Shown: piece by piece, positions 100 through 802 of the stretch
How the letters are laid out: each line of letters starts with the position of its first letter
Numbering within the stretch: position 1 is the stretch's first letter
Source: a virus
Taxonomy: Duplodnaviria > Heunggongvirae > Uroviricota > Caudoviricetes
IMG/VR virus record: IMGVR_UViG_2698536511_000007
DNA length: 4,389 nucleotides
Direction: 5' to 3' (one strand)
Notes under the pieces: generated by a model
The model's input: the letters and a program-made list of their open reading frames with translations, nothing else
Databases searched by the model: none
What the model was told of the DNA's origin: nothing
Translations under genes and position numbers: made by a program

Positions 100-363
100 G
101 TGTCCGTTAAACTCAGGCTACCTCAGGTTATTCGCTTCTGGGCATGGGCGGATCAACAAATGATAGACGGTAATGCAGATTGTAACGCTCGCGGCGTTAC
201 AAAAAGTGCAATAGATCGCATCACTTTTATGTCTGGTTTTGCTGATGCGTTAATTCAGGTTGGATGGCTGGTCGAAAATGACGGAGGGCTTTCTCTACCT
301 AACTTTGAACGTCATAACGGAAAAAGCTCTAAAAAAAACGGGCGGTTACAAACGAGCGAGTAA
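100..363 (+). CDS. Phage replication initiator, N-terminal segment (frame 1); probably part of one longer gene 100..802 disrupted by frameshifts
   Basis: 87-aa ORF starting at GTG 100 directly abutting an AGGAAGGAG stretch; alternative in-frame ATG at 160. It ends at TAA 361-363 immediately after an A8 tract (331-338). It sits upstream of a DnaT-like domain and a DnaC-like loader, the position of a lambda-O-like initiator. The N-terminus may be affected by the neighbouring IS. Confidence 0.5.
   Translation: MSVKLRLPQVIRFWAWADQQMIDGNADCNARGVTKSAIDRITFMSGFADALIQVGWLVENDGGLSLPNFERHNGKSSKKNGRLQTSE
182..200. repeat. Inverted repeat GTAACGC-tcgcg-GCGTTAC (candidate initiator-binding site / iteron)
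   Basis: Arms 182-188 and 194-200 are exact reverse complements. The same heptamer recurs at 391-397, 403-409 and 426-432. Confidence 0.4.
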
Positions 364-390
364 CAAAAATACGCGAACTGAAACGAAAAG

Positions 391-409
391 GTAACGCTGC
401 CAGCGTTAC
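391..409. repeat. Perfect palindrome GTAACGCTG-c-CAGCGTTAC (candidate initiator-binding site / iteron)
   Basis: 9-bp arms around a central C, seen directly. It is flanked by A-rich tracts (363-389) and a further GCGTTAC at 426-432. Confidence 0.4.
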
Positions 410-434
410 ACAAACGGATCAAAAAGCGTTACCA

Positions 435-452
435 GAGGAAGAGGAAGAGGAA
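435..452 (+). repeat. (GAGGAA)x3 tandem hexanucleotide repeat, encoding EEEEEE in the only frame open through this region
   Basis: Read directly from the sequence gaggaagaggaagaggaa. Confidence 0.7.
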
Positions 453-532
453 GATCTAAATACTGATCTCCCCCTCGCCAAAAACGAGCGTCTAAAAAAT
501 TCGAGCCGGAGGCTATTGAGCTGCCCGATTGG

Positions 533-802
533 TTGCCGGAAACACTCTGGCATGAGTGGGTCCGGTTCAGACAGGCATTGCGAAAACCGATTCGAACGGA
601 GCAGGGCGCTAACGGGGCGATACGGGAACTGGAAAAATTCCGTCAGCAGGGTTTTACACCTGAGCAGGTGATTCGACACAGCATCGCCAATGAATACCAG
701 GGCCTGTTCGCGCCGAAAGGTGTTCGGCCTGAGACGTTGCTCCGACAGGTTAACACCGTCTCGTTGCCGGACAGTGCGATCCCGCCAGGCTTCAGGGGGT
801 AA
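533..802 (+). CDS. DnaT (primosomal protein I)-like C-terminal domain of the replication initiator; frame open from 467 but without ATG/GTG start or RBS
   Basis: The C-terminus ...RQVNTVSLPDSAIPPGFRG closely matches the C-terminus of E. coli DnaT as I recall it (…NTVSEPDSQIPPGFRG), and the upstream ELPDW…W region also resembles DnaT. The frame has only TTG (533) or CTG (521) as possible starts and no Shine-Dalgarno, so it is unlikely to be translated independently. Confidence 0.7.
   Translation: MPETLWHEWVRFRQALRKPIRTEQGANGAIRELEKFRQQGFTPEQVIRHSIANEYQGLFAPKGVRPETLLRQVNTVSLPDSAIPPGFRG

Follow-up and report, generated by a model that had tools for sequence, protein, structure and literature searches.

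An apparent phage replication initiator gene that is read in three successive frames within one contig raises the question of whether it is broken, misread or recoded. The DNA analysed here (the window) is a whole stretch of 4,389 nt from IMG/VR virus record IMGVR_UViG_2698536511_000007 (Caudoviricetes). The original prediction, made from its letters, was that a replication initiator gene at 100-802 is split across three reading frames with both breaks at poly-A tracts, through homopolymer sequencing errors, through inactivation in a decaying prophage or, least likely, with slippage-dependent expression. Three-frame translation of the window bears out this layout and its frame coordinates (100-363, 333, 467-802). 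Frame 1 is open at 100-363 as a mechanical GTG ORF of 87 aa, whose stop codon (361-363) lies downstream of the A8 run; a TAA at 330-332 is followed by frame 3, open from 333, and a TGA at 464-466 by frame 2, open from 467 to its stop at 800-802. The A8 (331-338) and A6 (494-499) tracts are both present at the predicted positions, and a peptide that had been given as KGNASVTQ reads KGNAASVTQ, a small slip. Frame 2 had been described as having no ATG or GTG start and no RBS, and this is so: neither codon occurs in frame 2 upstream of TTG 533, and this TTG, the first candidate, lacks a properly spaced SD. An ORF of 234 codons does formally result in silico when both tracts are lengthened by one A, but this repair does not describe the evolutionary history of the gene.

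As reference intact alleles we used those of E. coli FDAARGOS_944 (L001; gene 2398-3186, WP_038340159.1) and COL60J (L002). The three pieces of the window are colinear with the single intact gene at 98.3% nucleotide identity and therefore are not chance ORFs, and window positions 125-900 match the uninterrupted gene at 97-98% identity in 680 complete E. coli genomes. Comparison with intact homologues, the check that had been proposed, returned single ORFs of 789 nt (262 aa in both L001 and L002) with an A6 in place of the A8 and with an extra 10 bp. The features of the window are collected in the table below.

Table. Features of the initiator region and of the rest of the window
Feature	Position	Strand	Evidence and remarks
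IS600 (IS3 family), terminal 125 bp	1..125	-	Ends in CCTCA at 125; OrfA start at 61
GGT target-site duplication	126..128	+	In complete genomes the second copy lies beyond the other end of the IS
Initiator pseudogene segment 1	126..330	+	Frame 1; codons 36-103 of the intact 262 aa, N-terminal domain; L001/L002 alignment and reconstruction
A8 homopolymer, lesion of +2 relative to A6	331..338	+	Intact-allele alignments
Initiator pseudogene segment 2	339..468	+	Frame 3; basic and acidic linker region, codons about 106-148
Minus-strand ORFs across the region, e.g. 164 aa	419-913	-	Regarded as mechanical
(AGAGGA)x3 hexanucleotide repeat	434..451	+	Encodes a poly-Glu stretch; no lesion
Scar of the 10-bp deletion, single TCCCCCT left	469..475	+	Alignment to intact alleles
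Initiator pseudogene segment 3	476..802	+	Frame 2; DnaT-like C-terminal domain; ends in NTVSLPDSAIPPGFRG, TAA 800-802
A6 tract, no lesion	494..499	+	Same in all intact and broken alleles examined
Mechanical ORF, 89 aa	533-802	+	TTG start
ydaV, DnaC-like helicase loader, intact, 248 aa	809..1555	+	NCBIfam NF009043, 1-248/248, 510 bits
262-N run	2123-2384		Gap in the scaffold, its size an estimate; complete genomes have 476 bp here (L004 8024-8499)
queH, prophage-borne epoxyqueuosine reductase	2391-3026		PF02677; RefSeq name in L001; 5' end lost in the N-run
hok/sok-type toxin-antitoxin locus	3084-3409		Rfam RF01794 'sok' at 3084-3259, 117 bits
DUF1367 gene, cut at about 4291 by a second IS600	3985-4389		Second IS600 in the same orientation as the first

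The first frame change lies at the A8 run, as predicted, but it had been read as one missing A, whereas the run is two nucleotides longer than in intact alleles. L001, L002 and L013 have an A6 here, the window shares its A8 with 17 other loci, and L012 has an A9; no RefSeq complete E. coli genome matched the A8 context at ≥99%. The second frame change had been placed at the A6 tract, which is unchanged in intact homologues; it lies instead at a 10-bp deletion about 25 nt upstream (468/469-475), where the intact alleles read TCCCCCTAAATCCCCCT and the window is missing one TCCCCCT repeat plus AAA. The deletion context had no full-length match of ≥99% in complete E. coli genomes, and the 117 genomes spanning the site keep the extra 10 bp. 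With the gain at the A run the native frame passes from window frame 1 to 3, and with the 10-bp loss from 3 to 2; together these changes give the observed frame order of 1, 3, 2. The nearby (AGAGGA)n repeat varies from 3 to 7 units across otherwise near-identical loci and is in frame every time; one draft (L016) shows a very long (AGAGGA)n array adjoining Ns, which is probably an assembly artefact.

Two frame changes are real, but the count of lesions was short by one, as the gene carries three and the insertion of IS600 had been overlooked. Window positions 1-125 match copies annotated as 'IS3-like element IS600 family transposase' at 100% in 3004 E. coli genomes, and 1-61, read on the minus strand, supplies the first 20 codons of transposase OrfA (MSRKTQRYSKEFKAEAVRTV). 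The same IS600 end is repeated at three IS600 copies in L004. Where L001 reads GGGAAGGTTATTCGC uninterrupted, L004 carries IS600, with GGGAAGGT running into TGAGGTG at the left junction and CCTCA running into GGTTATTCGC at the right junction. These junctions show a 3-bp GGT duplication and hence a simple transposition into codon 35/36, with the element sitting after codon 35; its ends (TGAGGTG...CCTCA) and its HTH_Tnp_1 and rve genes are those of a simple IS600 insertion. Complete genomes such as L004 have the initiator gene's first 105 nt beyond the 1.3-kb IS600. The gene had been taken to start at the GTG at 100; since positions 1-125 are IS600, this GTG is IS sequence (100-125 being its terminus), the 87-aa ORF is a chimera and the first 35 codons are to be found beyond the element. 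The window is a typical S. sonnei short-read contig with IS600 at both ends (1-125 and about 4292-4389).

Reversal of the three lesions (IS and one copy of the target-site duplication removed, A8 shortened to A6 and the 10 bp put back) yielded 789 nt that encode the L001 protein without change and depart from the L001 gene at 1 synonymous base. This lone synonymous difference shows that the pseudogene is young. A rival reading is that the gene is truly intact and that its frame breaks are homopolymer errors, made in sequencing or assembly of a poor draft; the contig is indeed a short scaffold of draft quality, interrupted by 262 N, and A-runs are error-prone on some platforms. However, the second lesion is a 10-bp deletion with no homopolymer change, and the lesions are present in independent assemblies of the same lineage. 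Each of the 12 junction-bearing loci retrieved has the A8 and the deletion as well, on contigs from 3 kb to at least 4.8 Mb, and the exact chimeric 87-aa protein was found in 481 indexed blocks and on 492 contigs of up to 4.86 Mb (mostly named S. sonnei; names include 'putative bacteriophage protein [Shigella sonnei]' and FORC11_0721). The N-terminal stub, which extends into IS600 and measures 41 aa, was found on 344 contigs, and the window is 100% identical over its non-N bases to L004 (AMKI01000039.1) and L014 (CP010829.1). Recurrence in hundreds of independent assemblies refutes the error reading, to which we give practically no weight, and the three-frame lesions are genuine. It had been said that confirmation of the A8 and A6 together with the same arrangement in related prophages would count against the predicted split; the arrangement is indeed real and is shared across the S. 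sonnei-named assemblies examined, so this holds in part.

Alleles that carry only some of the lesions place the events in order. The A8 occurs without the deletion and without IS600 in L019 and L020, which belong to a fuller prophage that keeps gam, exoVIII and an intact ydaT; the A8 and the deletion occur without IS600 in L017 and in L021-L024; and all three lesions occur together in the window's lineage, where they are fixed. From these intermediates the order of decay was A8, then the 10-bp deletion, then IS600. The 113-aa product of the allele with A8 and deletion corresponds to SS53G_2911 (S. sonnei 53G) and was found on 159 contigs; another 113-aa protein, P0034 of S. flexneri, was considered as an A8-frameshifted N-terminus and rejected, its sequence being a truncated YdaV. 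Long A runs are prone to mutation (PMC1088944), and this A run is a mutational hot spot, with A9 alleles found both together with the deletion (L012) and as an intact 261-aa ORF in a protein named S. dysenteriae (P0043). The A6, A8 and A9 alleles could also be seen as states of a hypermutable, slippage-prone switch, in which the A8-only alleles of L019 and L020 would throttle rather than abolish initiator synthesis. We regard this as very unlikely; if true, it would mean a 'leaky' replication-defective prophage state before full decay, and it is moot for the window itself given the 10-bp deletion and IS600.

Some further loci depart from this series. An A6, undeleted allele in L013 (UARW01000010.1) carries at about 5980 an independent 1-bp insertion (GCCGGA to GCCGGGA) that splits it into ORFs of 170 aa and 89 aa, either a separate inactivation or a long-read error. 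In the S. sonnei-type drafts L008 and L011, the left flank of IS600 is a Rac-type ydaU (285 aa, DUF1376) with ydaV and not the N-terminal stub, and L011 has a second copy with A8 and deletion; this flank could be due to repeat-collapsed assembly joins or to real IS600 recombination between two prophages.

Expression through the lesions would call for transcriptional slippage or -1 frameshifting at the A8 and again at 494-500, giving a low-level, near-native initiator. The heptamers A_AAA_AAC (333-339, frame 1) and A_AAA_AAT (494-500, frame 3) do formally fit the X_XXY_YYZ pattern in the incoming frame, and two -1 shifts would lead through frames 1, 3 and 2 to a product of 234 aa. In bacteria, A runs of 8-9 are prone to slippage, by which broken genes can be rescued (PMC1088944), and frameshifting at A_AAA_AAC has been proven for one cluster of IS elements (PMC4066793). 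Transcriptional slippage at A/T runs rescues, for example, mxiE of Shigella flexneri, and the window resembles such genes in its 8-A run at the frame change, within the same genus. However, the intact homologues are single ORFs with A6, so the split arrangement is derived and not conserved; unlike the slippage-rescued genes, the window carries an additional non-homopolymer lesion and an IS insertion, and it bears no sign of selection for its arrangement. The second heptamer is unchanged in intact genes, where it lies in another frame, and it is 25 nt from the real lesion, which is a deletion and not a homopolymer change. The RNA downstream of the two sites (340-400 and 501-561) folds no better than shuffles (z = +0.97 and -1.12, respectively). 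IS600 deprives the remnant of its start codon and first 35 codons and of transcription from upstream. No promoter-like site was found on the + strand within 1-900; the sole site in this interval is on the minus strand at 110-82 and is directed at the orfA start at 61 (1 site where chance would give 0.7). No spacer separates the SD-like AAGGAG from GTG100, and two successive low-efficiency events would multiply. Slippage-dependent expression is thus not supported, and we consider it highly improbable; trace read-through of the post-IS part may nevertheless occur, given the formally slippery heptamers beside both frame changes.

Equally improbable is a reading as separate, working genes that each have a start of their own, an N-terminal one of 87 aa and a DnaT-like C-terminal one of 89-111 aa, as some deposited annotations would have it in listing the CDS FORC11_0721 and FORC11_0720. 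The 87-aa ORF starts within IS600 and its stop is out of frame, the TTG at 533 is the only start available to the C-terminal piece, and the 89-aa call was found on only 8 contigs. Split forms among the examined homologues are confined to broken alleles, most of them named Shigella (S. sonnei), and to L013 with its independent frameshift. The original prediction had held that it would fall if homologues proved to have separate N- and C-terminal genes with their own starts, and no examined homologue has them. The fragments differ by one synonymous nucleotide from the intact gene and are thus young and unselected.

The identity of the gene was assessed on the intact allele, which aligned with PHROG 2509 'replication initiation protein' over 1-262 against 1-277/277 (E = 1.2e-89); the protein of the lesion-reversed window is that of the intact allele, so this end-to-end homology holds for it. 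Segment 3 also matches PHROG 6451. RefSeq names the protein 'hypothetical protein' in one of the two reference genomes and 'phage replication initiator YdaU family protein' in the other, L002. The 90%-identity cluster has 1716 members, and among the members listed the full-length ones are mostly 261-266 aa, with YdaV-like proteins listed too. In L001 and L002 the intact initiator is flanked by cro/ydaT and the DnaC-like ydaV, the slot of a YdaU-family initiator and common to YdaU-type systems (cI / cro / ydaT / initiator / ydaV DnaC-like loader). The ydaV product matches Pfam IstB_IS21 and Bac_DnaA and is annotated ydaV by RefSeq. A Pfam scan of the intact protein and the fragments gave no match at E ≤ 0.01, including to DUF1376 (PF07120), and NCBIfam gave only a sub-threshold DnaT tail match (16 bits against a cut-off of 201).

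Residues 170-262 of the intact protein align with the C-terminal domain of E. coli DnaT (residues 92-179; PDB 2RU8, E = 9.5e-5; 9ZBT, E = 3e-4; also 6AEP), and the likeness includes the terminal motif NTVS-PDS-IPPGFRG. The match is weak (E about 1e-4) and confined to the C-terminal domain, and the intact initiator is no orthologue of DnaT. Over its C-terminal 124 aa it also shares 81% identity with a 285-aa DUF1376 protein (L008:3176-4033), which from its length and Pfam match we take to be Rac-type YdaU; BLASTP against this protein gave no N-terminal alignment, and its N-terminal DUF1376 domain is unrelated to that of the intact initiator. As judged from sequence, membership holds for the broader RefSeq/PHROG YdaU family and not for DUF1376. 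The predicted initiator with a DnaT-like C-terminal domain stands, with PHROG and RefSeq names, synteny and the DnaT-like domain supporting 'replication initiator' as its probable function; a literature search on YdaU/YdaV and replication found no papers.

We therefore favor, with a probability of about 0.95, the reading that window positions 126-802 are a non-functional remnant of a lambdoid-prophage YdaU-family initiator in an S. sonnei cryptic prophage. The inactivated initiator in a decaying prophage was the correct choice among the options first offered: the homologues are intact, the lesions fixed and the prophage riddled with IS elements. The intact protein comprises a variable N-terminal domain, an acidic linker and the DnaT-like C-terminal domain, and in intact phages it would be made as one 262-aa protein acting with the downstream loader YdaV. 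Its decay probably began with replication slippage that expanded the in-frame A6 to A8, followed by a slipped-strand deletion between the 7-bp direct repeats TCCCCCT; IS600 then cut off the start and the first 35 codons. The three-frame pattern is the footprint of the A8 and the 10-bp deletion. With IS600 after codon 35, the +2 and the -10, the window holds no single ORF with a start, and the gene, which differs from other YdaU-family members in being a triple-hit pseudogene, has in all likelihood lost its function.

Shigella genomes are marked by expansion of IS1, IS2, IS600 and IS911, by genome reduction and by IS- and indel-driven pseudogenisation. The window is typical of this process, with an IS600 flanked by a 3-bp target-site duplication, small indels at repeats and nothing notable that differs, and its cryptic prophage is likewise stripped of late genes and has IS copies at its bounds. 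The gene is an already-annotated, ordinary kind of Shigella pseudogene, and it teaches nothing new on replication initiation or recoding. For annotation, the deposited 87-aa and 89-aa 'hypothetical proteins' are pseudogene fragments and should not be counted as proteins, and the nested A8, deletion and IS600 lesions might serve as ordered markers of prophage decay in S. sonnei and relatives.

The gene lies in a lambdoid prophage that has itself decayed heavily. As seen in complete genomes, this prophage carries several IS copies and a truncated ydaT (101 aa against 140), and its DUF1367 gene (intact length 199 aa, e.g. L023) is cut by the second IS600, beyond which an integrase fragment replaces, and so indicates deletion of, the late genes. 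The mechanical 131-aa ORF at 3943-4338 is a chimera of gene and IS. The N-run, within which a 118-aa ORF ends and queH starts, is irrelevant to the frameshifts. Within the hok/sok-type locus, the Hok ORF lies at 3254-3409 and an overlapping mok-like ORF starts at 3197 (PF01848). Relative to the chromosomal flank (an ABC transporter gene and the integrase fragment), the prophage of L014 and L004 is oriented opposite to that of L021 (CP044151.1), and this opposite orientation in IS600-disrupted and IS600-free lineages suggests an IS600-mediated inversion or deletion.
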